Shown piece after piece: positions 869 through 26,381 of a DNA stretch of 64,000 nt. The notes under the pieces are model-generated. The model was not told the DNA's origin. It searched no databases and saw only the letters and a program-made list of their open reading frames with translations. The first letter of the stretch is position 1, and each line of letters starts with the position of its first letter. The DNA is from Candidatus Bathyarchaeota archaeon (GTDB lineage Archaea > Thermoproteota > Bathyarchaeia > 40CM-2-53-6 > RBG-13-38-9): NCBI GenBank assembly GCA_963807605.1, contig CAWECG010000003.1, forward strand, positions 32,001 to 96,000, given 5' to 3'. The translations under genes and the position numbers were made by a program.

Positions 869-962
869 CCAAAACATCCTTCCTCTTTTTTCGTAACTTC
901 CTAGCATACTTTCTTTTTCACAATCTGCCGGGCGAAGCGAGGCATATCTTTTTTCGTCGTCG
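749..962 (+). repeat. Sorting-tail + 3' UTR module, copy 1 (copy 2 at 22009-22225, minus strand)
   Basis: 8 mismatches in 120 coding nt. Similarity continues through the 3' UTR to a (GTC)n tail. Confidence 0.9.
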
Positions 963-981
963 TATCCCTTGGTGAGCACAC
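955..981 (-). repeat. Array site 1: (CGT)n tail - core TATCCCTTGGTGAG (963-976) - CACAC
   Basis: Read directly. Exact reverse complement of the core at 17787-17800. Confidence 0.9.
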
Positions 982-982
982 C

Positions 983-1411
983 TATGAGAATGGAGAGTCT
1001 GTACCAGTTAAATGGTCTTCCCATGGACTGGGGCATCTGCTCCATGAAAACGAGCAAGAATGGGAGAAAGCTCTGTGGACTAACATTCTACGATACGCAT
1101 TAGGCAAAATTTCCAAAGAGGAATTGCTAGCACCGTATGCAACTGAGTATGCCGTGGCAAAACTAAGTTTGACTAAACCTCACCTTCTCAAGAGAGTCAA
1201 GGCCATAAACAAAGTAACATCAATGACCAAGCGGATCAGGCCCTACAATTTCGTTCTAGCTGGGTCTCCCGCCAGAGTAGACCAAAGAGGCAAACCCATC
1301 ATTCCGCTGACAAATTTCACCAGAGAATATGATCTAGCTCCACATCAAACGTTCGTTGATGCCAGGAGTGGCAAACACTAGACAGAATACACCGAATCAT
1401 ACTGGAGAAGA
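983..1411 (+). pseudogene. C-terminal fragment of casposon-type family B DNA polymerase
   Basis: Translates as YENGESVPVKWSSHGLGHLLH...WEKALW...AVAKLSLTKP...RIRPYNFVLAG. SxHGLGHLL and I(K/R)P(F/Y)NF are motifs I recall from casposon PolB. No start codon, internal TAG. Confidence 0.65.
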
Positions 1412-2250
1412 TGAATAAGGGGTAGGAGGGTGGACAATACGCCTATCCAGAGGTCTTCATCAGGCTCCTAGGCTACATGCGCATGTTCTTCCACCTGCCC
1501 TACCGGCAGACAGAAGGACTCCTGAAAGCACTGAGAAGATTCGACTCAAGGATCAAAGTGCCTGACTAAACTATCGACAGGCGTGTGAACAAGTTGGATG
1601 AAAAAATCTTTGGAGATGACATAGTCCTGGCGGTGGATGCTTCAGGCATCAAGGTAGCTAACCGCGGCGAATGGATGCGCGACAAATGGAAGATCAGACG
1701 CGGATACCTAAAGATCCACATCGCGGTGGATGTGAAGCAGAAGAAGATCCTGGCGCTAGAGGTGACCGATGAAAAAGTGGGAGATGGACAAATGCTCAAG
1801 CCGCTGGTTGAGGAAGCCTCCAAGAAGAGTAAGGTCGCTAAAACAATTGGCGACGGAGCATACGATATGGAAAGCAACTTTCACTACCTCGACGCAAAAG
1901 GGATTGAGTCACGCATCAAGGTGCGGAAGAACACATCCAGCAGAGCCGGAGGATGCACGCCCCGCAAACTCGCAGCCCAAAAATACCTGCAGGACCCGTA
2001 AGCCTGGAAACGCAAGCATGGCTACGGCCAGCGCTGGATGGCTGAAACCGCCTTCTCGTCCTTCAAGCGAACCTTTGGAGAATATGTCTCAGCCAAAACG
2101 ATGCAAAACATGGCGAAGGAAATGATGATCAAAGCCTCACTATACAACATGCTGATAGAAACGACCACAGCAACACAAGGCTAGACGAAACCTGAAGACA
2201 GCCAACAAAAGCGAAAAGCATCACCGAAACCTAGTCGCGCAACACAGCAC
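1402..2250 (+). mobile_element. IS5-family (IS903-like) transposase remnant
   Basis: LPYRQTEG, VDASGIK, RRGYLKIHIAVD, GDGAYD, RWMAETAFSSFKR. Broken by stops/frameshift. Right end GCAACACAGC near 2240-2249. Confidence 0.85.
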
Positions 2251-2306
2251 ACACGACCAAAGTTTTAAATCAATCAATCTGAAATTTCTAGATAGGTGCA
2301 TCTGGT

Positions 2307-2645
2307 TTGGTAAGTCGTTCCATAATAGCGATAGTGGTTGTCATAGTGATAATTGCTGTGGCTGGAGTCTACTATATCTCTAGATCTCCTGCCCCGACTC
2401 CGCAATACTCACCTCCTCAGTCTACGACGCCAACCGTCGCTGCAGACGGTGCAGCATTGTACAAAGACAACTGTGAAGCGTGCCATGGTGCAAAGGGTGT
2501 TGGAGGGAAAGGCCCCGTGCTCACTGCCAGCAATGTAAACAGAAATACAATAGAGAAAGGTAATATCGATAAAGGTATGCCAGCATTTGGGACTACACTC
2601 ACTCCGGATCAGATTACAGCGATACTACAGTACTTGACATCCTGA
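2307..2645 (+). CDS. Membrane-anchored monoheme class I cytochrome c
   Basis: N-terminal TM, CEACH heme motif, distal GMPAF Met ligand. Confidence 0.85.
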   Translation: MVSRSIIAIVVVIVIIAVAGVYYISRSPAPTPQYSPPQSTTPTVAADGAALYKDNCEACHGAKGVGGKGPVLTASNVNRNTIEKGNIDKGMPAFGTTLTPDQITAILQYLTS

Positions 2646-3143
2646 GTAGAAATGGTAAAATCTCAACTCCTGTAGTGTAGGCGTTTTTCCCGGCCTGCGT
2701 CATTATGGCTCGATGATAGGTGATGGTCCAAGGAGCATTCAGTAGAGCCTACGCTGGCTTATGCAGAGCTTGAAGACGTTTCAGAATGTTCCGGTGCCTT
2801 GAAAGTAACTCAAGAACTCCGTCAAGGGCCCTCATCCAGCGAGCGCATCCCTCCAAACTTATCGAATCAAAGTATGTTGCCATTGAGAGGTAAAGGTAGG
2901 CCGAATGAAACTAAATGTTCAACTGTTCATTCAAGGCATCTAAGATTTTCTTGCCAATCATTTTTCTCACACTTTTGTATGTAGACTTCAAGGGGCTGAT
3001 AGCTACTTAATGCTATAGCGTCGACGTTGTGAATAGGTATCCCCTTTTAACAAGAGTCAAAGAATACGGCTTGGAATGTTGTGAACGTCTTCGATCGAAC
3101 TTAATAGGTGCCAGTTCCTAATTGAAATTTAAGTAGGTTTTGT

Positions 3144-3458
3144 ATGCCAATAGATCCAGATTTTGCAAAGAAACTCAAGAAGCATGGCCAGCACAATGGA
3201 CATGATGTTTGGGGCGAAGTGCAACCTCCAGAAAAGCTGGGAATTCACGGCACCAGCGTAGCCGTGGATCATGAAGTTTGTGACGGGGACGCCATCTGCG
3301 TACAGGTCTGCCCGGTTAACGTATACGAAATGATCGATAGCCCAGGACACCCGAAGTCGGACAAGAAATCAGATCCCGTCAGAGAGTCCGACTGCATCTT
3401 TTGCATGGCCTGCGAGATCTCGTGTCCACCCAAGGCAATCAAAATAACCCAGAAATAG
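3144..3458 (+). CDS. zfx: Zinc-containing dicluster ferredoxin
   Basis: N-terminal IDP..H.GH.VWG....KLGIHG extension plus CDGDAICVQVCP and CIFCMACEISCP. Confidence 0.85.
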   Translation: MPIDPDFAKKLKKHGQHNGHDVWGEVQPPEKLGIHGTSVAVDHEVCDGDAICVQVCPVNVYEMIDSPGHPKSDKKSDPVRESDCIFCMACEISCPPKAIKITQK

Positions 3459-3508
3459 AAAACCAGAAATCAACTTCAATCCCCTCGAAAATCTGACAGA
3501 ACCCTCTT

Positions 3509-3700
3509 CTAACTCACCTTTTTCAACCATTTTTTTATTATTCTTCTTATCGTATACTCAGGGATATTTGTTATAATCTGTTGTATGCTCCGAAGGTTGG
3601 CAACCAATTCAGTTCTAAGATATTCTTTAATTTTGATCCCAATTTCTTCATTTGAGATAGGAGATGATGTTTGAGAATATTGAATATAGGTTCTCCTCAT
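3509..3700 (-). CDS. Hypothetical protein (AT-rich)
   Basis: Start overlaps the stop of the upstream ORF (ATGA). Confidence 0.4.
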   Translation of the reverse strand: MRRTYIQYSQTSSPISNEEIGIKIKEYLRTELVANLRSIQQIITNIPEYTIRRIIKKWLKKVS

Positions 3701-3969
3701 TGCCTTCCACCACCATAACTATTATAGAAAAATAAGGCGAATTGTGAGCCGAACTCTCCCACGGTATAGATTTTCACTCCTTCATGTTCACCTACGGCGT
3801 CTCTAATTCTATCTGCAACCTTTCTATCCGCTAAAATCACAAGATATTGTAACCCCTCTGCTGTTGCTTTTTGGACCTGTTCCTCTACCATATTCCTTAA
3901 TTCTTCTAAAGTTGCTTTTTCACTAATGCTGAGACTAATCCCTCCGTCTATTGCTCCCCACCCAGCCAA
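3697..3969 (-). CDS. Hypothetical protein
   Basis: 90-aa ORF with protein-like composition. Confidence 0.5.
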   Translation of the reverse strand: MAGWGAIDGGISLSISEKATLEELRNMVEEQVQKATAEGLQYLVILADRKVADRIRDAVGEHEGVKIYTVGEFGSQFALFFYNSYGGGRQ

Positions 3970-4019
3970 AACTACGTTGGACTTTGTATTGTGTTCAAAA
4001 TTGGTTGTAACCTCAACTC

Positions 4020-4161
4020 ATCCATATCGCCAGTGACAAACCCTTTATTCTGGAAACCACGAACTAGGCAAGAGAAACACCACAAGACTGCATAGAGTCG
4101 GGAATGAAAAGGGAAATGAAAATGTAGGCGGTCGCACCACTCCAGCAATGAATAGATACAA
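4020..4161 (+). repeat. ~142-bp dispersed repeat with a tRNA-Gly-like 3' end (att remnant); copy 2 at 21054-21195, partial copy at 27902-27940
   Basis: Near-identical sequence in both copies; GGCGG(T/C)CGCACCA followed by CTC(C/T)AGCAATGAATAGATAC. Confidence 0.85.
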
Positions 4162-4383
4162 CTGATGGAATCTTTGCGCCACACACAAGAACTAGACAGT
4201 TATTCAGAATCCGCAAAGAGTCGGGTCATATGATGAGGCTAGTTATTAGTACCGTAACCTTTTTCTATGCAGCATAGCGCGCGCGTTTTGGGATACTAGC
4301 ACAATTACATTGTGTAATGGTCGCGCCTAACTTCTGGGAGAAAATAAGGATAAAGAAGGTTGGAAAGCAGGCTAGTGTTGGCT

Positions 4384-5094
4384 TCACATCTCATTGTGGC
4401 TACGCGCGTGTACGAGATATGTCGCAACAGCTAGAATCGCAATCATTACTCCAATAAGCGTAACTAGGCTATTCGTATCCAGAAGCGGTTGAGCAACCAG
4501 TGCTGCTTGAGTAGATGCAGGTGATACAGTCGTTGATGGAACAGTCTGGGTAGTACTCGACGTAGGCGATGAAGAAGGGGCAGTTTGTGGTGGACTAGGT
4601 GAGGCTACGTTTGGAATCCGAGGGCATCCGGAACAGTCCGCGATGATTTTGAAACTATCAAAGCCTACGATGGTATTGCCGGAGAGAACAGGATTAACTA
4701 GGATCACGCAGGTATGAGGTGTGCGAATCACGGACTTAGCGTCATACCAGCTATACACCTTCTCTGTTGAACATTGGTGCAGATATTCAGGAAGACCGTC
4801 GTGATCATCGTCCTCGACGAATCCGCATATCACTGTTGGAGGCGATGATCCTAATGGTGGTTGACCATTTGCTATTCTAATGTGCGCAACAGGAATGATG
4901 CTAGCGATTATCAGGAGGACTATTGGTAGAATCGAACCTTTGCGAGGCATGACCAGTGTCCTTGCTCTTTGCATCGTTATTGAGCTCTTCATAAGCATTT
5001 CCGCCCGCTTGGCATAGGTGCAAATCTGAGGATCATGCGAAAATGCGCTCCTGCGGTAGCTAGAGCAAGCAGAATTCCTAGGGATGATGGCCAT
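4384..5094 (-). CDS. Secreted/membrane-anchored protein with Ser/Thr/Pro linker (true start probably downstream of the annotated one)
   Basis: Hydrophobic signal segment, Cys-containing domain, S/T/P-rich linker, C-terminal TM. Confidence 0.6.
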   Translation of the reverse strand: MAIIPRNSACSSYRRSAFSHDPQICTYAKRAEMLMKSSITMQRARTLVMPRKGSILPIVLLIIASIIPVAHIRIANGQPPLGSSPPTVICGFVEDDDHDGLPEYLHQCSTEKVYSWYDAKSVIRTPHTCVILVNPVLSGNTIVGFDSFKIIADCSGCPRIPNVASPSPPQTAPSSSPTSSTTQTVPSTTVSPASTQAALVAQPLLDTNSLVTLIGVMIAILAVATYLVHARSHNEM

Positions 5095-5124
5095 GCTCGA
5101 TGCTTTTGGCTAGCTTGCTAGCCA

Positions 5125-5586
5125 TCAGCACGCGCGGCTCGATTGAGGTGATGTTGGCGGGTTCTCGCGTCTCCATGAGATGTTTATCGGACCGGCTTGG
5201 CCAGCATGAGTTATTGCTGTGTCACCTGTTACGTTGTCCGCTACGCAGATGTAGAGGAAGAAGTCACCGACCGTGTCAGTGAGTATGGCACCGTCAGGGG
5301 AGTAGTAGTTTCTTTGATCACTTGGCGGAACGTAGAGGCTTCCAGGCAGCAGAAATGCTATGTGGCCCGGAGCATGTCCGCCAAAGTCTTTCGGAGTATG
5401 GAATCTTGGTTGGCCGTTGCCAGCTACATTAGTTGGACTGACTGGAAGGCCGCCTGCGGTCGTCTCTCCAATCTTTCCTGGCAGTTGGTCACCCAATGTG
5501 TAGTGGGCTGCGACCTGCTGTACAGTAGCTAAGGCAGCTAATACAAACATAGTTACGCAGAGCGTTGCGAGTATTTTTGTAATCAT
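5125..5586 (-). pseudogene. Secreted protein, apparently truncated at a CGCGCG junction
   Basis: Signal peptide present. The ORF ends ...SS-RAC* across CGCGCG at 5131-5136. Confidence 0.5.
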
Positions 5587-5821
5587 GTTCTACTTCTCTA
5601 GGCCACTTCAATTCAGTTGTTGAAGGGAATTGGATAGCTGACGTGAGCGCTAACATTAGATGCAAAACTGGTATTTTTAAGATTTAATTCAATCTAGTCG
5701 TATCCAGATTTTTTATGTCTGGCAACGGCCTTGTTTGACCTAGGCAAGGCCAGCGAATCTTTAGGGAGATAGGGAAAAACTAGTTTGACGGCGTCTATGG
5801 CCTGAGAGATCCGGTAGAATT

Positions 5822-7465
5822 CTATGTGGCTACTATCTTGTAAGGTCGCATCATTGAGTTGTCTTCGTGTTCGAGGATGTGGCAGTGCCAGACGTAGTTC
5901 CCACCTGTAGTAGTGGGATTGAAGGTATTATAGGGACCGAATTTTACGATGATGCGTGTTATCGTCTCTGTGTTCGCTCTGACGGTGTCCTTCCAGCCTG
6001 CCTCATTGGGGTCAGGTGGCCCGGCAGGGCCCTCAAAATCAATCTCCTTTTTTCCTTTGTATGTTTCAACATCGTATGGTTGTCTATCGAGAATCTGAAA
6101 TTGTACGGCGTGTAGGTGAATGGGATGTGTGTCTTCTGTGGTGGTTATCAGGCGCCAGATCTCGGTTGCGCCGAGTTTGGGGTTCTCAGTTATCGGATCA
6201 TCCCACATTGAGCCATTGAGTTTCAGTATTACGGAGTTGCCCTGCTTGGATTTATTCTCGTCTAGAGTCAAATCCCTGACTGGCGTTGTTGGGGTCTGAA
6301 CTAAGGGCACGAATGGCATGGTGGCTGGGATAGTGCTGTTGTCTGGTTGTGTAAGCGGTACCACTCTGAACTGCATGACCTCAGGAATCACAAGCTCGAC
6401 TCCATTTGGAAACGGCGCCTTAGCGTCATTTGTCAGGAGTATCTGAGTTCCTGGTGAAACACCTGTAAAGTCGACAATTACGTCAGCCCGTTCTGCTGGA
6501 GAAATCAAGAGCTTCTTCACTTGCACAGACGAGGGCAAGAAACCGCCGTCAGTCCCGATCTGATGGAAGATTTGGCCCGAGTCAAGACTTAACCTGTAGA
6601 AGCGAGAGTTCGAGCCGTTCAAAAAGTGGAATCGGTACTTTCGCGGCTCCACCTCAAGAAACGGCCAAACCTTGCCGTTCACTAGTATGGTATCACCGAA
6701 GAATTCAGGAACCCAGACAGGAGGGGTTTCAGGATCCCCCTGACCTTTAGTCGGGTAGAACAGCGAACCGTCGGTGTTGAAGGTCCGGTCTTGGATAACA
6801 AGCGGGATCTCATACTTCTCTTTTGGAAGGTTAAGCCCATCCTCAACCGCGTCACGGATCAAATAGAAGCCTGCCAGCCCCGAGATAACGTTGAGGCGCG
6901 TTATTCCAATAGCGTGGTCATGATACCAAAGGGTAGAAGCTGGGTTCTCGTTGGGATAGTAATAGGTGCTGGATCCTCCAGGAGGAAACCACGCCTCAGG
7001 ATACCCGTCGCTTGCCGGAGGCGTGAACCCACCGTGCAAGTGGACAACATTGCGGACCTCATGGCCAGTAGTTTCTGCGCCGTGAATCGTATGGTCTATT
7101 GAACTTGCGAGTAAATGTGTGGTGGGCAGGTGACTTATCCATTTCACCTGTATTGGGCTGCCTGTTCGAACTTCGAATGTGGGACCGGGATACGTACCGT
7201 TGTATCCCCACAGTGTTGTTGGTGGAAGCTGACTGTGAAGTTTCTGTGTGAACTGAGTCATTTCCACTTCGTAGTTGGTGCCTCCTGGCTCGGTAGGCTG
7301 CACGACCTTTGGAATAGGCAAGGGATCCACATACTTGGTGAGGGTGCTTGGTTCAAGCGGAGCCGGTGGGTGGAAAGCGTACTTTGATAAGGCCGCACCT
7401 ATGGCGACCGCACCTGCTAGGCCTCCTAGAGCCTTTAAGAATGTTCTTCTCTTCATTCGAAGCAT
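5822..7465 (-). CDS. Tat-exported multicopper oxidase (CotA/bilirubin oxidase-like)
   Basis: KRRTFLK Tat signal; HLHG, WYHDH, HPIHLH and WHCHILEHED copper motifs. Confidence 0.93.
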   Translation of the reverse strand: MLRMKRRTFLKALGGLAGAVAIGAALSKYAFHPPAPLEPSTLTKYVDPLPIPKVVQPTEPGGTNYEVEMTQFTQKLHSQLPPTTLWGYNGTYPGPTFEVRTGSPIQVKWISHLPTTHLLASSIDHTIHGAETTGHEVRNVVHLHGGFTPPASDGYPEAWFPPGGSSTYYYPNENPASTLWYHDHAIGITRLNVISGLAGFYLIRDAVEDGLNLPKEKYEIPLVIQDRTFNTDGSLFYPTKGQGDPETPPVWVPEFFGDTILVNGKVWPFLEVEPRKYRFHFLNGSNSRFYRLSLDSGQIFHQIGTDGGFLPSSVQVKKLLISPAERADVIVDFTGVSPGTQILLTNDAKAPFPNGVELVIPEVMQFRVVPLTQPDNSTIPATMPFVPLVQTPTTPVRDLTLDENKSKQGNSVILKLNGSMWDDPITENPKLGATEIWRLITTTEDTHPIHLHAVQFQILDRQPYDVETYKGKKEIDFEGPAGPPDPNEAGWKDTVRANTETITRIIVKFGPYNTFNPTTTGGNYVWHCHILEHEDNSMMRPYKIVAT

Positions 7466-7609
7466 CTTGACGACCTTCGGTTAAACATGCCAAATGCTGG
7501 AAAGTCAGGATTCATATTAAATACACGCGTTGTTAAGCAAATCGCTTCCTACAAGGGCTCGTACGAGCGTGCTTGACCGTGTTCCGTGAGATAAGCGCGC
7601 GCTGGCCTG

Positions 7610-7685
7610 ACTTACACGTGTAATTTACACGTCGATTTCCAGACTTACACGATCCAGCTATAACGCCGTTATTCCCTATATCCCC
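7610..7685 (+). mobile_element. Casposon-like terminus remnant A1 (CACGT iterons ... CCTATATCCCC)
   Basis: About 85-90% identical by eye to 9310-9383 and 17710-17786. Abuts the core at 7686-7699. Confidence 0.7.
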
Positions 7686-7824
<139 letters not shown>

Positions 7825-8633: not shown

Positions 8634-8646
8634 TCTGTTGCTCCTC

Positions 8647-9309: not shown

Positions 9310-9400
9310 TTACACGTGATATTTACACGTCGAATTTCAGACTTCCACGATCCAGCCATAACCCCGTTATTACCTATATCCCCATCACCGAGGGGCACAC
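9310..9400 (+). mobile_element. Casposon-like terminus A2 + array site 3 (core ATCACCGAGGGGCA, 9384-9397)
   Basis: GTTATTACCTATATCCCC directly followed by a core 11/14 identical to consensus. Confidence 0.7.
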
Positions 9401-9437
9401 AACTGTAATGGCTAGCTAAGGTTAAGGACGTTCGTAA

Positions 9438-9959: not shown

Positions 9960-10298
9960 ATTAAATGACTGTTTTCAATCACAAATTTAAGCTTGGTGTG
10001 CACTTAACACAGCGTGTGCGCTAGAAACCATACGCGCGCGCACTACAATAACGGCTCGCTACGCTCGCCGAGTCCGAAGAACGGATGAATTGCGATTCTA
10101 CTGTCTCTCGATTCAGTTGGAGCGTTCAAAGTACTTTCTAAAATCACTTTCAGGCGTGAGCGATCAAGCGACGCATCGCCTGGCGGAAACGTTCCTCGCT
10201 CTCACGCAGGACTTGCTCCGCGTTCTTTTGCCGGGTAATGTCTCGCGCAATTGTTGAAGCACCAACTATCTTGTCGGCAGAATTTGAACTCTAGTTTT

Positions 10299-10329
10299 GT
10301 GTGTGCTCACCAGCTATGGCGACGACGAC
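10299..10329 (+). repeat. Array site 4: GTGTGTG - CTCACCAGCTATGG - CGACGACGAC
   Basis: Read directly. Confidence 0.9.
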
Positions 10330-11106: not shown

Positions 11107-11307
11107 TGTGTGTGCGCACGATCTCTTGGTGCGAGCATCCAAATTTGGACTAGTATGTGTGTGTGCCATAGTTGGTGAGGAGCATCTGAAATTGAACTGT
11201 TAGAGCAGGATTTTTGTGTGTGTGCTCACCAAGGGATGCACACACACACAAAATCAATACCAAGCGGTTCAATTCTAGATGCTCTCACCAGCTAAGGCAC
11301 ACACACA
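11107..11307. repeat. Compact mini-array: four cores (11120, 11166, 11225, 11284) with 32/45/45-bp inserts
   Basis: Read directly. Each insert has a (CA)n end and an AGCATC..AATT(T)G(A/G)AC end. Confidence 0.85.
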
Positions 11308-11747
11308 AATCATAATCTAATGGCTCGCTACCCTCGCCAAAGCATCAAGAGCTTGATAACCTCCGGCTTCAGCAGTTTTATTTCGATACGAGTTGGCGCG
11401 AATCAGTCGCAGAAAGTTCCTGGCTTCAGGAGCCGTATGTGCGGCAGCTTTCGGTTCAGGTTACACATGGAGGGACAAGCTGTCCTCGCTGACAGAGATG
11501 TTTCATGACCATACTGATAATGTGGATGAATCACCGTAATCTATTCAATTACATCAGGCGAATTGACAGGAGGTTCATACTCTTCAATGGCCTCTTGCTT
11601 TTGTTCGTCACTGTGATTCCATTTCCACATCCCTCGTGGCAGAGCATATACTGAGCAATGATGCCAATATTCTTCACCCTAACGATCAAAGAATCATAAG
11701 AACAGCGGTAACTTCTTGCGTATTCTTCAGTAATACATCAAAGGGTA

Positions 11748-12643: not shown

Positions 12644-13540
12644 ATGAAGCTCACAGAGGATATTAATGCACTAAAGAAAAAGAAGAACGCAATTATCCTC
12701 GTGCACAATTATCAGGCACCTGAGATATATGAAATCGCAGATTTCATAGGTGATTCCTTAGAACTCAGTAGAAAAAGTACTGGTACAGATGCAGATTACA
12801 TCATATTCTGTGGAGTAGACTTCATGGCGGAGACCGCCTCCATACTAAACCCGACCAAGACTATTTTGCTCCCTGTTCTGCAAGCACAGTGCCCTATGGC
12901 GGCAATGGCTGATGCTGAAGGAGTCAGGATGCTGAAAAAACAGTATCCCGATGCAGCCGTAGTAAGCTATGTAAACACATCAGCAGAGGTTAAAGCTGAA
13001 TCCGACATCTGTTGCACCAGCGCAAACGCTGTTCAAGTCGTGAACTCACTGAGCCAAGAGAAAGTGATCTTCGTCCCTGATGAAAACCTTGCACTATACG
13101 TTGCAGAGCATACCAAGAAACGCATAATTTCTTGGAAAGGCTGGTGCTATGTTCACACAAAATTCTCGGTAGAAGGGTTAAAGGGAGCCCGAAGACTGCG
13201 TCCGAATGCTGAAGTTATTGTGCATCCTGAATGCAGAACTGAGATCATCGATCTCGCCGACTATGTCTGCAGCACAAGCCAGATGATGAGACGGGTAGGA
13301 GAAAGCAATAAGGATGAATTCATAATTGGAACAGAGGTGGGGATGATAGAACGGTTGAAAATGGAATACCCGACCAAAACCTTCTACGCCGTGCCGCCTG
13401 GAGCTACTTGCATTCAAATGAAGAAGAACAGACTTGAATCAGTTCTAGAAGCATTAGAAAAAGAACAATATGTGATAAATGTCCCTGAGGAAGTGAGATT
13501 GAAAGCTAAGAAAGCCTTGGATATGATGCTAGCACTTTGA
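12644..13540 (+). CDS. nadA: Quinolinate synthase
   Basis: HNYQ, GDSLEL, FCGVDFMAE, CPMA, YVNTSA, HPEC. Confidence 0.95.
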   Translation: MKLTEDINALKKKKNAIILVHNYQAPEIYEIADFIGDSLELSRKSTGTDADYIIFCGVDFMAETASILNPTKTILLPVLQAQCPMAAMADAEGVRMLKKQYPDAAVVSYVNTSAEVKAESDICCTSANAVQVVNSLSQEKVIFVPDENLALYVAEHTKKRIISWKGWCYVHTKFSVEGLKGARRLRPNAEVIVHPECRTEIIDLADYVCSTSQMMRRVGESNKDEFIIGTEVGMIERLKMEYPTKTFYAVPPGATCIQMKKNRLESVLEALEKEQYVINVPEEVRLKAKKALDMMLAL

Positions 13541-15021
13541 AGACGGACATCCTGATAATCGGCAGTGGAATAGCAGGCCTTTGCTTTGCATTCAAGGCAA
13601 TGGATTATGGCAAGATAATAGTCCTCACGAAGAAGAGCGCTGCAGAGTCTAATACCAACTATGCTCAAGGAGGAATCGCTGCAGCCATAGGCGAGGATGA
13701 CTCCCCCCAGCTTCACTTCCAAGACACAGTAAGAACTGGTTGTGGCCTGTGCGATGAGAATGCTGTGAAGACTCTGGTAGAGAACGGACCCGATGTTGTA
13801 AGAGAGCTCGTATCACTCGGAGTCAAAATTGACCAGGATGATAAAGGCGGACTTTCGCTAAGTAGGGAAGCAGGTCATAGCAGGAACAGGATTGTCCATG
13901 TTGGGGATAGAACAGGAAGAGCAATTGAAAGGGCATTAGTAGCTAAGGTCAGAAGAGGAAAATCGATAGAGATCTATGAAGACTGTCTCACCATTGACTT
14001 GATCGTTGACAACAGACGGTGCTATGGCGCTAAAGTGTTAGATGTTATGACTCGAAAGATTTTCAATATCTATTCTAAGGTTACAGTTCTGGCGACTGGT
14101 GGAATAGGACAGGTATACCAGAGGACATCGAATCCGAAGGTTGCGACGGGGGACGGGATCGCTATGGCCTATAGGGCAGGAGCAACTATCAAAGATATGG
14201 AGTTCATACAGTTTCACCCAACCACCTTCCACAAAGATTGTAAAGTGGCCTTTCTAATTTCCGAGACTCTCCGTGGCGAGGGAGCCATTTTAAGAAACGA
14301 GTCTGGACAGGCGTTTATGGCATCATATGATGAGAGGGGGGATTTGACACCCCGTGACATCGTTTCCAGAGCTGTATTCAACGAAATGAAGAAAGGCTCT
14401 GTATACGTTGACATCAGGCATAGGGGAGAGAAATTCATCAAAGAACGTTTCCCCTATCTCTATCGCAGATGCCTACATTACGGCGTGAATATCACCAAAG
14501 ACCTCATACCAGTGACTCCAGCAGCCCACTACCTTTGCGGAGGCATCAAGACAAACATCTATGGCGAAACAGATGTTGAAAGGTTACTCGCCTTCGGCGA
14601 GTGTGCTTGTACATGTGTGCATGGAGCGAATCGTTTAGCTAGCAACTCTTTACTGGAATCAATTGTCTTCAGCTTCATGGCCGCGAAGAGAATCAAGAAT
14701 TATCTTGACACTAGTGTGCATGAAGTTGAGGCTAAACCTTCTAGAATTAGGATCATCAGAGGATCTCGAAAGACTCAGAAGATTAAGAGAGAGTTGCAGA
14801 AGTTGATGTGGACCCATGTTGGCATAGTGAGAGAGGAGAGAGGGCTTGAATATGCCTTAAAGAACCTTGGTGAACTTGAGGCCGAGACTTACAAGATTGC
14901 CGAAGAGGGATTGAGCCCAGACCTGATAGAATTAAAGAACATGATAACAGTTTCCAGACTAATCACCCAAGCAGCATTGGATAGGCGGGAGAGTGTAGGC
15001 ACCCACTATATTCTCCGGTAA
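13537..15021 (+). CDS. nadB: L-aspartate oxidase
   Basis: GSGIAG, YAQGGIA, QFHPT, PAAHY.CGG, HGANRLASNSLLE. Confidence 0.95.
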   Translation: MKTDILIIGSGIAGLCFAFKAMDYGKIIVLTKKSAAESNTNYAQGGIAAAIGEDDSPQLHFQDTVRTGCGLCDENAVKTLVENGPDVVRELVSLGVKIDQDDKGGLSLSREAGHSRNRIVHVGDRTGRAIERALVAKVRRGKSIEIYEDCLTIDLIVDNRRCYGAKVLDVMTRKIFNIYSKVTVLATGGIGQVYQRTSNPKVATGDGIAMAYRAGATIKDMEFIQFHPTTFHKDCKVAFLISETLRGEGAILRNESGQAFMASYDERGDLTPRDIVSRAVFNEMKKGSVYVDIRHRGEKFIKERFPYLYRRCLHYGVNITKDLIPVTPAAHYLCGGIKTNIYGETDVERLLAFGECACTCVHGANRLASNSLLESIVFSFMAAKRIKNYLDTSVHEVEAKPSRIRIIRGSRKTQKIKRELQKLMWTHVGIVREERGLEYALKNLGELEAETYKIAEEGLSPDLIELKNMITVSRLITQAALDRRESVGTHYILR

Positions 15022-15101
15022 TCTTTTTTCGAGTATACCAAGACAATCACTACTGCAAGGGATTTCATAAGATATTGTAAACAACTCATTGGGAGTTATA
15101 G

Positions 15102-15938
15102 ATGAGAGCAAATGAAATAATTGAAATGGCTCTGAATGAAGATCGTTGCGATGAAGATATTACTACTAACGCTCTAATCCCTGAAGGTTCTAAGACGAAA
15201 GGAGCTATTTATGCAGAAGAAAGCGGTGTAATTGCAGGTTTAGAGGCAGCACGAGACGTCTTCCGCTATGATGACTCAGACGTGACCTTCACGCCTCTGG
15301 TAAGAGACGGTGACTATGTTCGCTCTGGTCAAAGACTTGCTGAAGTTGAAGGTGATGCTAGAGTAATTTTGTCACGCGAAAGAGTTGCGCTAAACTTTCT
15401 CCAGCATCTCTCTGGCATAGCTACTGCTACAAACAGATATGTGAAGAAAGCTGGGAAAACCATAATCTTAGACACTAGAAAAACAACCCCAGGGTTGCGT
15501 GAATTGGAGAAGTATGCGGTGAGAATAGGGGGCGGATATAACCATCGATTGAGTCTAGCTGAGATGGGTATGATCAAGGATAACCATATTGCATTTATTG
15601 GAAGTATCAAAAAAGCGGTGAAGCTTGTCAGAGGGTACTCACACAAGAAGATTGTGGTAGAAACTAAAACGATTAATGAAGTACTGGAGGCAGTAGAAGC
15701 CAAACCTGACAGGATAATGTTAGATAATATGTCCCTTAAAGAAATGAAAAAGGCCATAGAGATCATACGCTCAGCCAATACCAGGATAGAGATAGAGGTC
15801 TCCGGAGGCGTTACATTAGAGAATATTGCGGAGATCGCAAAGCTCGAACCCGACTATGCCTCCTGTGGAGCGTTGACCCATTCAGTTAAGGCATTAGAAA
15901 TGAGTTTAGAGCTAGACCAAACTATTGCCAACCGTTAA
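15102..15938 (+). CDS. nadC: Quinolinate phosphoribosyltransferase
   Basis: ERVALN, DTRKTTPG, KDNH, MLDN. Confidence 0.95.
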   Translation: MRANEIIEMALNEDRCDEDITTNALIPEGSKTKGAIYAEESGVIAGLEAARDVFRYDDSDVTFTPLVRDGDYVRSGQRLAEVEGDARVILSRERVALNFLQHLSGIATATNRYVKKAGKTIILDTRKTTPGLRELEKYAVRIGGGYNHRLSLAEMGMIKDNHIAFIGSIKKAVKLVRGYSHKKIVVETKTINEVLEAVEAKPDRIMLDNMSLKEMKKAIEIIRSANTRIEIEVSGGVTLENIAEIAKLEPDYASCGALTHSVKALEMSLELDQTIANR

Positions 15939-17598: not shown

Positions 17599-17709
17599 AC
17601 ATATGTGATGCCACTGCGTACTCGAGATTGATTATAGACGAAGCGCCTGAGGCATTAGAAGCTTTGCATTTTACGAAAGCTGGGAGAGCGTTAGTGTGCG
17701 CTAGGGCAG

Positions 17710-17831
17710 ATTTCCACGTGGCAATTTACACGTCGATTTTCAGACTTCCACGATCCAGCCATAACACCGTTATTACCTATATCCCCCTCACCAAGGGATA
17801 CGACGACGATATCCCTTGGTGAGCACACACA
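17710..17831. mobile_element. Casposon-like terminus A3 + inverted core pair (17787-17800 / 17810-17823) around CGACGACGA, then (CA)4
   Basis: Read directly; the two cores form a perfect 14-bp inverted repeat. Confidence 0.8.
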
Positions 17832-18363: not shown

Positions 18364-18490
18364 CTGAATGCCCTGAGCCAAGGGATTCCTAGCGAAAGGA
18401 CATTTTCAGTCAATTTTCTTGCGCTGGAGCGGTTGTTAGAGGGCTCCTCTCCTAATAAATAGGAGCAGGGGGGCGTAGGAGACTCTTCTT

Positions 18491-18526
18491 GTGTGTGTCC
18501 CTTGGTGAGAGCACTCTAATTTGAAC
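18491..18526 (-). repeat. Array site: GTGTG - TGTCCCTTGGTGAG - AGCACTCTAATTTGAAC
   Basis: Read directly. Confidence 0.85.
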
Positions 18527-19431: not shown

Positions 19432-19815
19432 CCAGCAGTATCTCCTAGCCTTTGATTGTTGAAGAGTTTAGGTAGATATGTCGCATAGGTTTTGAAACAA
19501 GCTTTCTACTAGCTCAAGAAGGTTGTACTTTGCACTTTCGCGCTTAGAAATCCTGATCATGAGTACTTCTTCCCGAAATAGGTTTCCCTGATCGTCAAAT
19601 TTTTCCAGTTTACTTTAGTCGGAGTGCGCTAGCGATGTTGATGGTTAAAGATGTGATACATGTCTTCTTATGGCCTAAAAAAATCAGCATTTAAACAATC
19701 CGGGACAACACGACTGCACTGGGTCCCAGCTCCTCGCGGGGGGCCGGTTTTGATAACGTATGTAACGCTGTTTTCGATCTCTGCGACGCGCCCTAGAATC
19801 ACTTCATTCTAGAAA

Positions 19816-19970
19816 TGTCCATGTGGATGTCCACGTCGGAAAACCAGCATCCACGTGACCACACCAAACAGCCAGTTATCTATATCCCCCTCACCAGCTA
19901 ATGCACACACACAAAAATTAACCTGCTCTAACGGTGCAAATTACGATGCTCACCAACTGGAGCACAGACA
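19816..19970 (+). mobile_element. Casposon-like terminus A4 + two direct cores (19890-19903, 19949-19962) with a 45-bp insert
   Basis: CCACGT iterons and TATATCCCC; the insert is homologous to 11180-11224 (reverse complement). Confidence 0.75.
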
Positions 19971-20069
19971 AGTTGTCTCGCTCCTGCGCCTCTAAAAACT
20001 CAATCTGGCTTGAAATGATCAGATGATTTTAAGCAACGTAGGAGGATCTTTTTGTATTCAACCTCATAG

Positions 20070-20782: not shown

Positions 20783-20893
20783 CATGACGTGCAAGATGTC
20801 CTTCGTTCTAGGATATTCTATGGTGGCTTTGAAGTGTCTTAGACTCTTGAAGCTGATCTTTTGTATTCTAGGGTTTTGCATCTTCTCTGCTAT
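20783..20893 (-). pseudogene. Tyrosine integrase internal fragment
   Basis: IAEKMQNPRIQKISFKSLRHFKATIEY..TKDILHVM (LRH motif). Confidence 0.7.
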
Positions 20894-21050
20894 CTTCTCT
20901 GACCAAGTCCGGAACAGGTTTGTCAAAATCGATTTGTTTTGTTTTTCCGAGAATGAAAATCGCCAGTTCCTGAGTTTTCAACATTATCATGCTATCCCAC
21001 CGATAGTATTTGTTTCGGTGTAATACAGGAGAATTGAAGGAAAACCTCAG
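20883..21050 (-). pseudogene. cas1: Casposase (Cas1-solo) C-terminal fragment
   Basis: LRFSFNSPVLHRNKYYRWDSMIMLKTQELAIFILGKTKQIDFDKPVPDLVREDS resembles the casposase pattern W..(I/V)..K..ELA.(Y/F)(I/L).GK...(L/I)DF..P...R.D (from memory). Not in the ORF track. Confidence 0.7.
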
Positions 21051-21286
21051 CTAATCCATATCGCCAGTGACAAACCCTTTATTCTGGAAACCACGAACTA
21101 GGCTAGAGAAACACCACAAGACTGCATAGAGTCGGGAATGAAAAGGGAAATGGAAATGTAGGCGGCCGCACCACTCTAGCAATGAATAGATACAATTAAC
21201 GCGCGCGTACATGTATGAAGGGGAGCAGGGTCATGTATCCATTGCACAAAGCCGCGGGCGTCTCGATAGCTAAGGCGGATCTGCCA

Positions 21287-21309
21287 GCGCGCGCTGGTGA
21301 GCACACACA
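21287..21309 (-). repeat. Array site truncated by a (GC)4 run: GCGCGCG-CTGGTGAG-CACACACA
   Basis: Read directly. Confidence 0.75.
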
Positions 21310-21360
21310 TATCCATTATGCAGGATAAACCCTGAACAGTGCTCAGGTGCGTACAAACAA

Positions 21361-21708: not shown

Positions 21709-21986
21709 GTATCAGAGTGATCAACGTGAAAGTAAAAGCGCTAAAAAGGCCCAACACACCCATCGCATATCCTTGATGATGAATAAAATCAGAATAACCT
21801 TCATCGTCGGCGCCCAATCAAATCACCCTACCGATAGCGAGTTTGCTTGATTCTCCCCCACCTCCCGTTTCAAAGGATATAAGATTTGTCAATGTTTTAC
21901 AACACTTCTTCATTGCTAAACGCAGTCTCCCATAGCAAGTCTCGTGTGCATAGGGCGGCGTGATTTCAAGGCGCGCGCTATTGATT

Positions 21987-22020
21987 GTGTGTGTGCCTTG
22001 CTGGTGAGCGACGACGACGA
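21987..22020 (-). repeat. Array site: (GT)n - CCTTGCTGGTGAG - (CGA)4
   Basis: Read directly. Confidence 0.9.
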
Positions 22021-22105
22021 AAAAAGATGTGCCTCGCTTCGCTTGGCAGATAATGAAAAGGAAAGTATGCAAGGAAGTTATGAAGAAAGGGAAAGACTGT
22101 TTTGG

Positions 22106-22606
22106 TTAGTCTCTTCTTCTCTTAACCACTACAACCGCGGATAATGCAGCGACTAGTCCTGCTAAGGTTAGGTAGGGTGTTAGAATCTCAAGCTTGTTAG
22201 TTGGTAGGGTGACTCCGCCCACAGGAAAAGTGACTGCATGGAGAATAATGTAATAGTTTTCTCCATTCAGATTGATGCCAAATGGACCCGGAGGGCCGAC
22301 CTGGCCGTAAACTTCGACTAGGTCTCCAACCTGAACATCAGCATAGCCCTGTTGTGGAAATGGAGGACTTACAACAAAGCCAACCTGAACGGTGCTGCCG
22401 ACCGTGAGGCTTCCTGAGCTATCAGAGATTATCTCAAGAATCTGGACATCCCACCAATGTGAACCGATGAGAATCCCCTGATTGGTGACCAAACCTCTGA
22501 TCTTAGCCTCTGTACCGTTAGCGGTAACTACAGGAATTATCGTACTCATAGCGGAGAGAACTAGCAGCATCATTACCGGTGCAAGAACTGAATAATTCTT
22601 ATTCAA
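22106..22606 (-). CDS. Secreted beta-rich protein with PVGG..NKLE-TM-KRRRD tail
   Basis: Signal peptide; tail near-identical to the gene at 1-868. Confidence 0.8.
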   Translation of the reverse strand: MNKNYSVLAPVMMLLVLSAMSTIIPVVTANGTEAKIRGLVTNQGILIGSHWWDVQILEIISDSSGSLTVGSTVQVGFVVSPPFPQQGYADVQVGDLVEVYGQVGPPGPFGINLNGENYYIILHAVTFPVGGVTLPTNKLEILTPYLTLAGLVAALSAVVVVKRRRD

Positions 22607-22893
22607 ACGTGTGCCTCTCTTAATATCATTCTCCGGTCCGCTATTAGTATTAAAACTTTCTAGGGGTATAGTACAAGCGCGCTACCATAGGCAAGATAGA
22701 AGCCTTCCAAAGCCTACAAATACGAAGCCTGGATGTTCCCTAACCATCAACAATTCGTGAACTACTGGAACTATGAGAGACCACACCAAGGAATAAGCTA
22801 TCTATATCCAGCACACGTCTATTTCAGAGACCTAAAGAAAGGAACACATGAGAGTAGCTAGAACAGATGATGTAGATGTCTTCGAGGTGACCT

Positions 22894-23736
22894 TTGTTAA
22901 GCAGGGATTCGCACTCGACTTCGGCAAAGACTGGTAATCCAGCTGAATCCAATCCCTCTAGGCCGATTACCTGGATGCACCTTGTGTCGTTTGCTCTTGC
23001 GACCGCGTTATCGTATGTCTTGGGCGTAGTCTCTTCCCTGTTCTTCCCCGTCTTGGGAGCCCCAGGTGTCACAGCGCTCTACGTTGCAGCCGCGATATAT
23101 GTTCCATTGGCAATTTGGATGGGTATGTGGGGGGTCCTCGCAGGCTATGTCAGCTGCTTTTTCTTGGGCTTGTGGCCAAGTGGATACTCTCCACTTCTAT
23201 CCTCGGTCTGGTCAGTAGCAGATTTCTTGGAAGCCTTGGTGCCACTGCTGTTCTTCAGGTTGCTCAGAGTAGACCCCGACTTTACGGTCAGGCGTCCCAC
23301 TGCAGCAAAATTATTCAGACCACTGGTAAGCATCGGGGTGGCGCTACTCGTCATCGGGATAATTGTGCAGATCTGCTTTGGCTCAATTTATGGTGAACCC
23401 TTTGTCTCAGTATACACGTACACCTTGTACACCGGCTTAGCGCTCTCAATAATTGGAATCTTAGTAGGCGCCTTCAAAGGCGACAAGAAAACATGGGCTA
23501 CGTATATCTTTTCAGGAATAATATCGGCCTCGGTTGTAAGTGGTATATGGGGTGGCTGGGCTTTGACTCTGATACCTGGCCTATCACCACTTCCAGCGGG
23601 CCTATTCCCCGTAGTCCTCACAGGATGGGTTGTCGGCGACATAATAGTACTGGCAGTAATAGCGACAGCACTACTGACCGCACTGACACCTATGATCAAA
23701 CGTTCACCCATATTTGTCAGACGCTGGTGGACTTAG
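22894..23736 (+). CDS. Multi-pass membrane protein (ECF S-component-like)
   Basis: About 8 TMs; GWVVGD motif near the C-terminus. Confidence 0.65.
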   Translation: MLSRDSHSTSAKTGNPAESNPSRPITWMHLVSFALATALSYVLGVVSSLFFPVLGAPGVTALYVAAAIYVPLAIWMGMWGVLAGYVSCFFLGLWPSGYSPLLSSVWSVADFLEALVPLLFFRLLRVDPDFTVRRPTAAKLFRPLVSIGVALLVIGIIVQICFGSIYGEPFVSVYTYTLYTGLALSIIGILVGAFKGDKKTWATYIFSGIISASVVSGIWGGWALTLIPGLSPLPAGLFPVVLTGWVVGDIIVLAVIATALLTALTPMIKRSPIFVRRWWT

Positions 23737-23783
23737 TTTCAGGTAAACCCCTTTTTTTCTTAAGATAGGAAAATACGAGCATA

Positions 23784-24003
23784 GTGTGTGTGCTCACCAG
23801 CTAGGGCAAACACACTAAACGAATGTCTCGCTCTCGGCTCGCCCTGAAGATTCAGGGGATTCTTCCCCTGACATGAACAGGAGGGATTCATGAACAGGAT
23901 AGGGATGGATTGTGTGTGGGTCTTTTGGTGAGGGGGATATAACATAACGCAGAGTTTTTGGTGTCCACGTGGCTATGCCTGATTGGACGTGGAAGTCCAC
24001 GTG
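23784..24003. mobile_element. Two array sites (23793-23806, 23919-23932) with a 112-bp insert, then casposon-like terminus A5 (GGGGATATA at 23933, opposite orientation)
   Basis: Read directly; CCACGTG iterons at 23965-24003. Confidence 0.75.
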
Positions 24004-24197
24004 ATACTGGCTGATGTGTTGTTTCTGATGTTGTGTTTTTTTTGTTTCTGTTTATGTCTTCTTGTTTTGTTTATTGTTTTTTGTTTCACAAAACGTTTTT
24101 CATTATGAAAAAAAGAGTAGGCAGATAAAAACACAAAAAAGTTCTATAATCTGGCCTAGTAAAGACGGAGAAGTCTTGTCCTGCAAGACGATGCTCT

Positions 24198-24779
24198 TCA
24201 CGAATGCAAACGCTTCAACACCGTTGGAAATCTCTTCTGGAGGATTATGAGGGCGACGACGGAGACGAGGAGGTTTGCGGGAACGGACAGAGTGAGTATG
24301 GGATAGGTCCATGCGCTGAACGCTACCGCAAAGTAGCTAAGGAAACCAGCATTCCTACCCAGACTCTGCAGCGCCGCCAATTGGACTGTTGGCATTCCTA
24401 ACGTGAGCTGTGTCGCCACGAAAAGCGCGACCATAGCGGAGCTGAATATGAAGCGTGAAAGCTGGCCTCCAATCACAGCATACACGGCCTTCATCTGCTT
24501 GGAGAGGCGATATGCGAACACCGCCATTATCGCATCACCAAGGCCAGATGGAAACTCAACGTACCATGCACCCGTCCAGGCTGAGGCGGCGATCCCCTTG
24601 ATGATCCCCACTATCGGACCGACCGGCCATGGGCAGAGCACCGCAGCTAATACTACAGCTGTCGATCCAAGGTTTGGGTTTCCGAAAGGTGTCAGAAATA
24701 GCACGCGAGTCAAGCCTATGGCGATGAGACCGAAGATCACAGAACATGTTAACACATTGTAGGTTCGCAATCTGGTCAA
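24198..24779 (-). CDS. ECF transporter S-component-like membrane protein
   Basis: GNPNLGST..GPIVGIIKG; 5-6 TMs. Confidence 0.6.
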   Translation of the reverse strand: MTRLRTYNVLTCSVIFGLIAIGLTRVLFLTPFGNPNLGSTAVVLAAVLCPWPVGPIVGIIKGIAASAWTGAWYVEFPSGLGDAIMAVFAYRLSKQMKAVYAVIGGQLSRFIFSSAMVALFVATQLTLGMPTVQLAALQSLGRNAGFLSYFAVAFSAWTYPILTLSVPANLLVSVVALIILQKRFPTVLKRLHS

Positions 24780-24952
24780 CCTACGTGCATAACCGTTTCG
24801 ACCTTATTCTTTAGCTTTACGATTAGAGTGGGGAATCGATGCAATGATTATGTTGTAGCTTGGCGTTTCGAAGAGCGCCAAAAAAGGGGTAATTCAAAGA
24901 ACAATAGCTACATCAGATGGTTTTGCTTCAGGTTATTCGGGTAAGTAAGCCT

Positions 24953-25543
24953 TCAGATGGTGGGCTTTTGGGATTGTGCAAGGAAAAGGAAGATCACAAG
25001 TCCAATGGTGATTGCGGTGATCATTGGAACTGCAATTTGCTCAACAGCGTTCAGGGCCTGAGAGAATGGTTGTGCTAAGAGAAGAATCAAAGCCATGGCC
25101 CCAGATTCAAAGCAAAAAGCAAGAACGGCTCCTTTAAGCAAGTATGCTTTTCCCGCAATCTTGTTTGAAACTAATCCCGCTATGACACCTGCAAGAATGG
25201 TAGAAATTGAGCAGGGAAGAGCAGTGAAGCCGCCTACTGAGTATCTGTGAATACCCCCAATTAAGCCTGCCAATAATCCAGAAACCGGCCCCCCAATGAG
25301 TCCAGCCATAAGAGGCGCCAGCTCTCTAACGTTCAATATTGCGCCACCTACCACAGAACCCATCAACGTTGCATAGATAGCTAGTATTCCGAAAACAACG
25401 GAGATCAATATCTCTTCTTTCATCCAGTTCTCCCCTCTTATGGGCTTGATGATGCCCATCTTAAAGAGAAGAAGTGCAACAACAATCACAAAAGACGCAG
25501 TTCCCAAAAGAGATAAGATGCCCCAAATAATACTTTCAAACAC
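24953..25543 (-). CDS. Stand-alone LytS/YhcK-type 5TM receptor domain protein
   Basis: ILNVR...AGLIGGP..G..AGLIGGIHR..GGFTA.C. Confidence 0.8.
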   Translation of the reverse strand: MFESIIWGILSLLGTASFVIVVALLLFKMGIIKPIRGENWMKEEILISVVFGILAIYATLMGSVVGGAILNVRELAPLMAGLIGGPVSGLLAGLIGGIHRYSVGGFTALPCSISTILAGVIAGLVSNKIAGKAYLLKGAVLAFCFESGAMALILLLAQPFSQALNAVEQIAVPMITAITIGLVIFLFLAQSQKPTI

Positions 25544-25785
25544 TTAGAACCACTCCTCATAGCGTAATCTCAAGATCTTCGCCAGTCTAACTACTTAACA
25601 TTATATAAAGACAATACAATTAACTCGTGGCCCGAAAGATCCAATGTGCCTCCAAGGCTTGTTTCAATTCAGCGCGCACGCGACAGAGCCCTCGGGGTCC
25701 TAATAGCACTCATTATATCTTGGCTTGATCATCTACTTACCTGTCTACGTCCACGAATCTTCAGAGGCAACCGGGTAAGGAACCA

Positions 25786-26130
25786 GTGAGTACATCACAC
25801 CCGCTCCTATTGCCAGAAAAGAGCGAGATTCACTGTCCAAGCTGCGGGGCAGTCAACCAAGAAACATGGACCTTCTGCCACGTTTGCGGTAAGAACCTCA
25901 AATCTGCCCAGCTGACCAAAGAAGAACTCCTACGAAGCGCAGTGAAAGCACTAGACCAAGGAGAGAAGGAACTCGCAAAGAGATTCATGGACCAAGCAGA
26001 ATCCCTGCTGGAACCACCTAAGCCTAAGCCATCAGAAAAAGAAACCAAAACGCCGACCTGTATTTCTTGTGGAGCCCAAATGCCTGCCCTTGCGACATTC
26101 TGCCCTGTCTGTGGAACTAAACAGCCCTAG
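25786..26130 (+). CDS. Double zinc-ribbon protein
   Basis: CPSCG..FCHVCG and CISCG..FCPVCG. Confidence 0.7.
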   Translation: MSTSHPLLLPEKSEIHCPSCGAVNQETWTFCHVCGKNLKSAQLTKEELLRSAVKALDQGEKELAKRFMDQAESLLEPPKPKPSEKETKTPTCISCGAQMPALATFCPVCGTKQP

Positions 26131-26306
26131 CCAATCATAGACAGCTAGCTGGAGATATTTGCATGCAATCTCGATTGATGGGCGGTTATGATCGAAACCC
26201 AACAATAGCTCAACGATGCTTATCCGGAAGATCTATTCCCTTGGTAACAAACTCCATTTGGATCATGACAGTATCAATTCACTTCTAGCGCGCGCGTTCT
26301 AGCGCG

Positions 26307-26381
26307 CTAGTGAGGACACCCAAAATCCCATTATTAGATTCTGTATGTGTGCGTCGTCGTGTCCTTGGTGAGCACACACAC
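26307..26381 (-). repeat. Last array sites: degenerate core (26307-26314), 45-bp insert ending in GTGTG-CGTCGTCG, core TGTCCTTGGTGAG (26360-26372), (CA)4C
   Basis: Read directly. Confidence 0.75.

Follow-up and report, generated by a model that had tools for sequence, protein, structure and literature searches.

Simple-repeat tails as the probable ends of a PolB-less casposon family in Bathyarchaeia

The casposon families that we found described in the literature encode a family B DNA polymerase (PolB) and are bounded by terminal inverted repeats (TIRs). For the casposase of A. boonei a 5-nt end suffices, and the enzyme reads TCAAATC upstream of its 14-bp target duplication, changes in the distal part being tolerated (PMC6614799). 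How an integrase acting on fixed ends gave way to one that takes up foreign DNA at a fixed site is the puzzle of CRISPR origin (PMC6977970). Here we analysed a stretch of 64,000 nucleotides (the window; positions 32001-96000 of contig CAWECG010000003.1, hereafter C3) from the genome of a Candidatus Bathyarchaeota archaeon (the source genome), in which copies of a 14-bp core are joined directly to short simple-repeat tails. We consider it probable that these tails mark the ends of casposons of a family without PolB, and of the non-autonomous debris of that family. The elements resemble the family 2 casposons AciBoo-C1 of A. boonei and MetMaz of Methanosarcina mazei in their Cas1-type integrase, the 14-bp duplication at a tRNA 3' end, the T-loop upstream of it and tandem insertion (PMC6614799, PMC6977970, PMC4779613).

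The core begins with CTCACCA and is variable in its second half, and 124 cores in about 31 clusters were found across the 2.65-Mb source genome. The sequence TTCAAAT followed by nine bases lies upstream of 46 of them, an arrangement like that of the T-loop ahead of the last seven bases in a tRNA. Real tRNA 3' ends were the insertion site at loci L103, L119, L132, L140, L149, L181 and L193, with mimics used elsewhere. Because of this T-loop geometry, the real tRNA 3' ends and the match to the A. boonei target, we take the core to be the target duplication of a casposase. At many element ends a mimic of the target is also placed just inside the tail, which accounts for landing units of 50-70 bp and for their stacking into arrays.

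The source genome contains 139 tailed ends at about 31 loci, carrying CA (100), CGA (22), CCA (13) or mixed (4) repeats that are usually 6-13 nt long, with rare expansions beyond 50 nt. Junctions of TGTGTG with CTCACCA were observed 38 times against 0.12 expected, TCG-core junctions 11 times against 0.12, and TGG-core junctions 7 times against 0.02. Right-hand tails started at core position 15, directly after base 14, in 130 cases, compared with 0-12 cases at offsets of 1-3 nt. The tail-core junction was present in 45 of 301 genomes of the class, in which a reversed control pattern gave one match. The tails are thus confirmed as real, far above chance expectation. The repertoire extends beyond CA and CGA to (CCA)n, CA(C)n, (CT)n and (CCG)n, the last three being added in other lineages, where the core reads CGCACCA. 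Nearly all tails leave a 3'-terminal G on the transferred strand, the DNA just inside them is A-rich, and the segments that they bound range from less than 30 bp to more than 5 kb. In the CGCACCA lineages, irregular and strand-specific ACG stutters lie just inside the tails (L140:4515-4565, L161:143-190 and L158:6021), in 32 of 93 ends versus 3 on the opposite strand. A recurrent GCTCGCTACGCTCGC motif was seen 8-15 nt inside the tail at 11308-11340 of the window and at about 20 other ends of the source genome; the linker preceding it varies between copies that are otherwise 98% identical, and the motif is a possible priming or binding site.

An earlier note on this DNA had held fixed TIRs of a miniature inverted-repeat transposable element (MITE) against its own reading of the tails, and had listed a reverse transcriptase (RT) among the candidate tail makers. 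One and the same sub-terminal DNA can bear tails of different motif and length, and flanks are unique at about half of the tailed ends (67 of 139 ends are unique), the other half falling in recurrent families. It is most improbable that the tails are such fixed TIRs, the arms of recombinase sites, RT products of the DRT3 or telomerase kind, or assembly artefacts. Some cores do resemble inverted arms around a spacer, one element (L119) has a 73-bp TIR, and DRT3 makes poly(GT/AC) (PMC13174585). On the other side, at least six motifs of variable length are used, the 14-bp duplication and T-loop motif are casposase signatures, and the pattern was seen in 45 genomes and in many independent metagenomes. 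Moreover, the source genome (94% complete) gave no match to PF00078, the RT family, and no RT-like gene was found in any of 11 tail-bounded elements. Contigs of related samples differ at homologous ends only by single-unit indels in the tail; the best-matching sequencing run contained 0.22 of the sequence words searched, and no RNA run was among those listed.

The evidence that these tails are element termini comes from ten intact elements of 8-12 kb, each of which runs from tail to tail between perfect 14-bp duplications. All ten carry the same motif at both ends (CA in five, CGA in two and CA(C)n in three; pairing p=6e-5, which becomes 0.007 once related elements are collapsed). Apart from the tail itself, nine of them lack inverted repeats. 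The remaining one, L119:99-9134, is the sole element of this type with a perfect 73-bp TIR, tail included; it has a GGGGA hairpin, whose end family recurs in many genomes and which may be a replication origin. When all neighbouring ends were considered, the match of tail types was not significant (p=0.06 overall and 0.25 in the source genome), and it was shown by the intact elements only. The proposal in the earlier note that tails act as surrogate ends for integration therefore holds in so far as they are the termini of ten complete elements; most of them are inherited, however, and fresh attachment apparently occurs only sometimes.

Three genes, encoding a casposase, a small protein resembling archaeo-eukaryotic primases (AEPs) and a basic partner, are the only ones common to all 11 tail-bounded elements; an ATPase gene is present in 9 of the 11, and a family B DNA polymerase in none. 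The casposase was identified by a PF01867 match (E=2.7e-49), and the catalytic E, H, D and E are retained at 63 of 66 loci, the remaining three representing the source genome's own copy. Divergent HTH-like genes flank the casposase, and no conserved HNH was found among the genes shared by the tail-bounded elements. We collected 96 loci encoding the small AEP-like protein, 41 of them at least 8 kb long, and these long loci contained a casposase in 38 cases, tail junctions in 36 and a PolB fragment in one. For comparison, we used the loci of intact relatives of the PolB fragment in the window. These PolB elements are casposons of the ordinary sort, which have long GGGGATAT inverted repeats and use the same kind of target; five were complete, with 14-bp duplications where both flanks were present, and they have the TCCCC-3' end of family 2 casposons (PMC6614799, PMC6977970, PMC4779613). 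The nearest ends were tails in 51 of 54 cases beside AEP modules and TIRs in 8 of 8 cases beside PolB modules, and the casposase tree separated an AEP clade from a PolB clade with 100/100 support. PolB, which the earlier note had named as another candidate tail maker, was rejected because PolB elements end in TIRs. Because PolB and TIRs are two defining features of casposon families 1-4, from both of which the tailed elements depart, we did not assign them to any of these. The element appears to work like a family 2 casposon and to be a separate family with simple-repeat ends.

The resident element of the source genome is 8,980 bp long, is bounded on both sides by (CGA)n and by a perfect duplication, and has no TIR. 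Beside its casposase lies an operon that encodes a P-loop ATPase, a basic protein of 123 aa and a small DxD/SxxKGxH protein. The earlier note had also suggested an AEP as candidate enzyme, and its gene is indeed present, in the AEP-type elements. The small protein is about 125 aa long with invariant D17, D19, H59 and D82, and is probably a minimal AEP core. Its model (pLDDT 84.5) best matched the fold of LigD polymerase domains, weakly (Foldseek E=0.019; Atlas TM ~0.5), and the nearest named Atlas family was the AEP-like PF24387; a Pfam search gave no match. Its look-alikes in the Atlas are mostly viral (phage) proteins, and no viral contig encoding a close relative was found. The partner (about 125 aa) gave no clear match in a fold search. 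For the predicted complex of the two proteins ipSAE was 0.85 (best control 0.00), with contact agreement of at least 98% between runs and a partner pLDDT of at least 88. The ipSAE mark used here was reached by 58 of 80 solved pairs and 2 of 110 mismatched pairs, and neighbouring or split genes tend to pass it. Recall of a solved complex by the predictor is not evident, since the partner has no clear fold match. Separately, two distant relatives of the small protein, P0259 and P0268, are fused to LAGLIDADG domains.

These data are consistent with the following mechanism. As the sequences show, the autonomous element of 8-12 kb always encodes the casposase, the AEP-like protein of about 125 aa and the basic partner of similar length, and usually the ATPase. 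It carries a short simple repeat at each end instead of a TIR, the transferred strand ending in 3'-G, and its insertion duplicates 14 bp of the target, which is a tRNA 3' end or else a T-loop-like mimic. Mimics just inside many of its ends let later insertions stack into arrays such as the window. The repeat is very probably read by the casposase as its end signal; so short a signal could suffice, given that about five terminal bases are enough for known casposases, which also accept single strands. The AEP/partner dimer in turn probably sets the motif. It would take the repeat as a priming site and renew it through slippage synthesis, and the chances seem evenly balanced that the dimer itself produces the repeat at DNA ends in the course of replication, through reiterative synthesis of the slippage type, in the manner of a small telomere. 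Old ends would mostly be inherited and new breaks occasionally re-tailed and so made integrable, and the rare very long tails would be later slippage expansions.

The role of the dimer in setting the motif is suggested by the gene trees. The two elements with CGA at both ends are sisters in the AEP tree (support 97/83) and in the partner tree (98/95), but their casposases fall in different subclades; the three C-type elements form one clade in both the AEP and the partner trees. By this comparison the tail motif follows the phylogeny of the AEP and its partner more closely than that of the casposase, which points to the AEP module.

Whether tails are made anew was assessed from their positions. 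In about eight cases, including 17787-17823 of the window, a run of the (TCG)n, (TGG)n or (TG)n type coincides with the boundary of another core or is no more than 1 nt away from it, which suggests fresh attachment. CGA, the motif of the resident element, is enriched on unique ends of the source genome (18 of 67 vs 3-4 of 72, p ~0.001), and one end family can bear different tail motifs. Both ends of the resident element abut gene ends, which counted for re-tailing; a DUF5677 gene runs into its tail, and a search for relatives of this gene found none, leaving a putative truncation only. One (CCA)n tail prolongs a CACCA found in an untailed copy, and a second PolB breakpoint, at C3:796409, has a (CA)5 that is absent from intact genes. 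When donors were sought with blastn and tblastx in the genome and the collected loci, few informative ones emerged. Taken together, the sequences are best read as most tails being inherited and some being attached at new breakpoints.

Several observations weigh against this mechanism or parts of it. No Foldseek match of the small protein reached E<=0.001, and unrelated folds scored as well as PrimPols, for which VIA Z was 4.6-5.6. The discordance between the AEP and casposase trees comes down to one pair, and linkage of the ends to the nearer gene could mimic it; likewise, the split between AEP with tails and PolB with TIRs is one evolutionary event, in which the casposase clade is a confounding factor. 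Of the 301 genomes, 45 have tail junctions, but the AEP gene was seen in only 10. Homologous ends mostly keep their tail type (6 of 6 pairs above 85% identity and 12 of 17 below). Open frames of at least 90 aa are crossed by just 8 of 108 tail junctions, against 49% of random positions nearby; selection against broken genes could, however, account for some of this avoidance of coding DNA. The compound tail at 26347 is inherited, as a related copy of this end lies on contig C4 at 74497; compound tails in general showed no consistent outer or inner polarity. Finally, the resident casposase (C3:803495-804703; L004:13496-14704), the only full-length one of the source genome, has Pro in place of the catalytic His at residue 236 (codon CCT). 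This H236P copy is apparently either an inactive casposase or a sequencing error; present activity in the source genome is accordingly doubtful, and the local arrays may now be inert.

Many of these points would also fit tails that are purely inherited short termini written by no enzyme, in which slippage changes the length, rare mutation changes the motif, and deletion or recombination at short homology makes the new joints, the AEP perhaps only reading the repeat. We regard this as rather unlikely, though a serious alternative. It accommodates the retained tail types and the recurrent families to which about half of the ends belong; end linkers have been swapped between bodies, truncation of the ACG-rich sub-terminal stutters could yield CGA tails, and the pRN1 primase, which reads and requires GTG (PMC2034472), is a precedent for a repeat as priming site. 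It does not readily explain the same rare motif on both ends of intact elements that have no common sub-terminal sequence, and it gives no account of why tails sit exactly on core boundaries or why the resident motif is enriched on unique ends. The joint at 977-983 of the window, where the earlier note saw a CACAC tail sitting directly on a PolB breakpoint, bears on the same choice. In most intact PolBs this position reads Y-L-D-E-x-G-E and has no CAC, so the gene has been broken here and at least part of the tip is foreign. However, one PolB homologue reads R-Y-E-N-G-E, the alignment starts at 983 and the tip may in part be PolB-coded; moreover, an identical 15-nt tip opens a non-PolB end in another genome (L168). 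The junction is therefore ambiguous, and fusion of an old end by short homology would fit as well as new synthesis.

A further alternative starts from oligonucleotides: the casposase would integrate free repeat oligonucleotides on both sides of the target, the chromosome would break, and cargo would be joined by microhomology end joining, possibly with help from the LigD-like AEP. Casposases do integrate single-stranded ends of 5-6 nt (PMC6614799, PMC6977970), tail-only spacers separate some inverted cores, and inversion was seen in 53 of 140 pairs of neighbouring cores. Nevertheless, the ends at 962 and 22009 of the window, which the earlier note had correctly described as one end joined to opposite sides of the core, are the same 215-bp end (90% identical), and complete elements lie between perfect duplications. 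Tails therefore travel with the insert, and the oligonucleotide route seems very unlikely.

The boldest extension of the writing mechanism is that the AEP/partner pair acts as an RT-free telomerase-like enzyme, whose lineage-specific repeats on broken ends license any fragment for casposase integration at a tRNA-like site; we put this forward only tentatively and think it doubtful. Capture of arbitrary DNA, which the earlier note proposed, is not supported as a rule, given the rarity of junctions across long frames and the general retention of tail type between homologous ends, and such capture would be at most occasional.

The window itself is debris of both element types, with TIR ends at 7608, 9321, 17709, 19811 and 23933 and tailed ends elsewhere. 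The tails cited in the earlier note, (TCG)3 at 954-962, CACAC at 977-981, (CA)58 at 7707-7822, (CGA)4 at 22009-22020 and the compound tail at 26347-26359, were all confirmed. At the left, an element end on the minus strand (749-962) closes with the (TCG)3 tail and belongs to the end family of 22009-22225 (215 nt, 90%). It is followed by a core that is a casposase target-site duplication (963-976, minus strand), by the ambiguous CACAC tip joined to an internal point of the casposon PolB gene (977-982, plus strand) and by an internal PolB fragment of the PF03175 type (983-1411, plus strand), which has 79-84% DNA identity to intact copies; the PolB-homologous DNA begins at 983-986. Further on, a PolB-type TIR end of the GGGGATAT type (7608-7685, minus strand) meets a core (7686-7699, minus strand) and the expanded tail that includes (CA)58 (7700-7822, plus strand). 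A second TIR end has a degenerate core (about 9384-9395) and a (CA)3 tail (9321-9401, plus strand), and at 10298-10328 (plus strand) a (TG)4 tail, a core (10306-10319) and a (CGA)3 tail are joined. The cluster at 11107-11307 contains four cores (11120, 11166, 11225 and 11284) with TG and CA tails, in units of 46-59 bp that bear the tRNA T-loop-like landing motif (TTCAAAT, 9 nt, core).

In the region 17709-17831, a TIR end is followed by a core (17787-17800), (CGA)3 (17801-17809), an identical inverted core (17810-17823) and (CA)4, the (CGA)3 tail being placed on the exact boundary of another core. A TG tail, a core (18496-18509) and a landing motif lie at 18490-18525 (minus strand), and a TIR end, a core (19890-19903), a (CA)5 tail, a landing unit and a degenerate core (19949) at 19811-19962 (plus strand). 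After a casposase gene fragment (20883-21035, minus strand) and a degenerate core with a (CA)4 tail (21288-21309, minus strand), a (TG)5 tail, a core (about 21995-22008) and the (CGA)4 tail of the 215-bp end occupy 21986-22225. The array continues at 23785-23941 with (TG)4, a core (23793-23806), a short insert of the hairpin family, (TG)4, a core (23919-23932) and a TIR end. It closes at 26346-26381 (minus strand) with the compound tail (outer CGA type, inner CA type), a 13-bp core (26360-26372) and a (CA)4C tail. The cargo of the window comprises a multicopper oxidase gene (5822-7465, minus strand) and, between cores, a complete nadA-nadB-nadC operon (12644-15938, plus strand).

Other features were seen in and around these loci. 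The PolB fragment of the window is immediately followed by a frameshifted remnant of a DDE (IS5-like) transposase (1420-2190). Two direct copies of a 153-bp sequence, 96% identical, occur at 4009-4161 and 21043-21195 with no core attached, and CG-alternating palindromes stand at module boundaries (26283-26306 and many intergenic sites) as a separate feature. One PolB casposon (L212:3130-5659) carries JAB, E2-like and ThiF genes of the ubiquitin-like kind, and at L207 and L208 type I restriction-modification genes adjoin the casposase.

Our literature search, from whose coverage most subscription journals fell outside, found no paper on Bathyarchaeia casposons, on microsatellite-ended casposons, or on the split of end types or the AEP link. 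Even read cautiously, these elements make up a new family of casposons, whose ends are of a new kind and which delivers metabolic genes (nadABC, multicopper oxidase) in Bathyarchaeia. The loss of both PolB and TIRs in a casposase clade, and its use of a short repeat as its end, coincide with gain of the small AEP module, and the PolB/TIR elements at the same target provide a built-in control. If the AEP does write the tails, it would be a new repeat-making polymerase. The telomere-like ends may let a CRISPR-type integrase take up new DNA. Should any-fragment licensing also prove true, it would offer a natural path by which fixed-end transposition could become CRISPR-like capture of foreign DNA of gene size.

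We know of no AEP that writes transposon ends. Like the LigD polymerase domain, the pRN1 primase and PF24387, the small protein appears to have an RRM-like catalytic core, with DxD and H motifs; unlike these primase-polymerases, it comprises only about 125 aa and has a predicted partner with no clear fold match. Telomeres and ends healed de novo carry strand-biased simple repeats of variable length, with a TG-rich 3' strand, which are sometimes irregular and seeded at short homology. The tails are likewise strand-biased, variable in length and TG-rich on the 3' strand, a likeness of sequence only; they differ from telomeres in that no RT or RNA template was found (the complete elements showed no conserved internal repeat template), several motifs occur, and the ends are integrated instead of free. 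DRT3 (PMC13174585) also makes poly(TG)/poly(CA) DNA, one strand without a nucleic-acid template, and here too the likeness is one of sequence; it is an RT-based phage defence with free products, and no RT was found in the tailed elements. With CRISPR adaptation by Cas1-Cas2 the elements share repeated leader-directed insertion, duplication of a short repeat and the building of an array of foreign DNA. The inserts here, however, span about 10 bp to 12 kb, need a repeat end and lie in both orientations, with no Cas2 beside the casposase. Compared with family 2 casposons, the AEP elements have no PolB and no long TIR. They have simple-repeat ends with 3'-G and an AEP/partner/ATPase module, their casposases form a clade of their own, their target mimics are mobile, and their gene cassettes number in the dozens.

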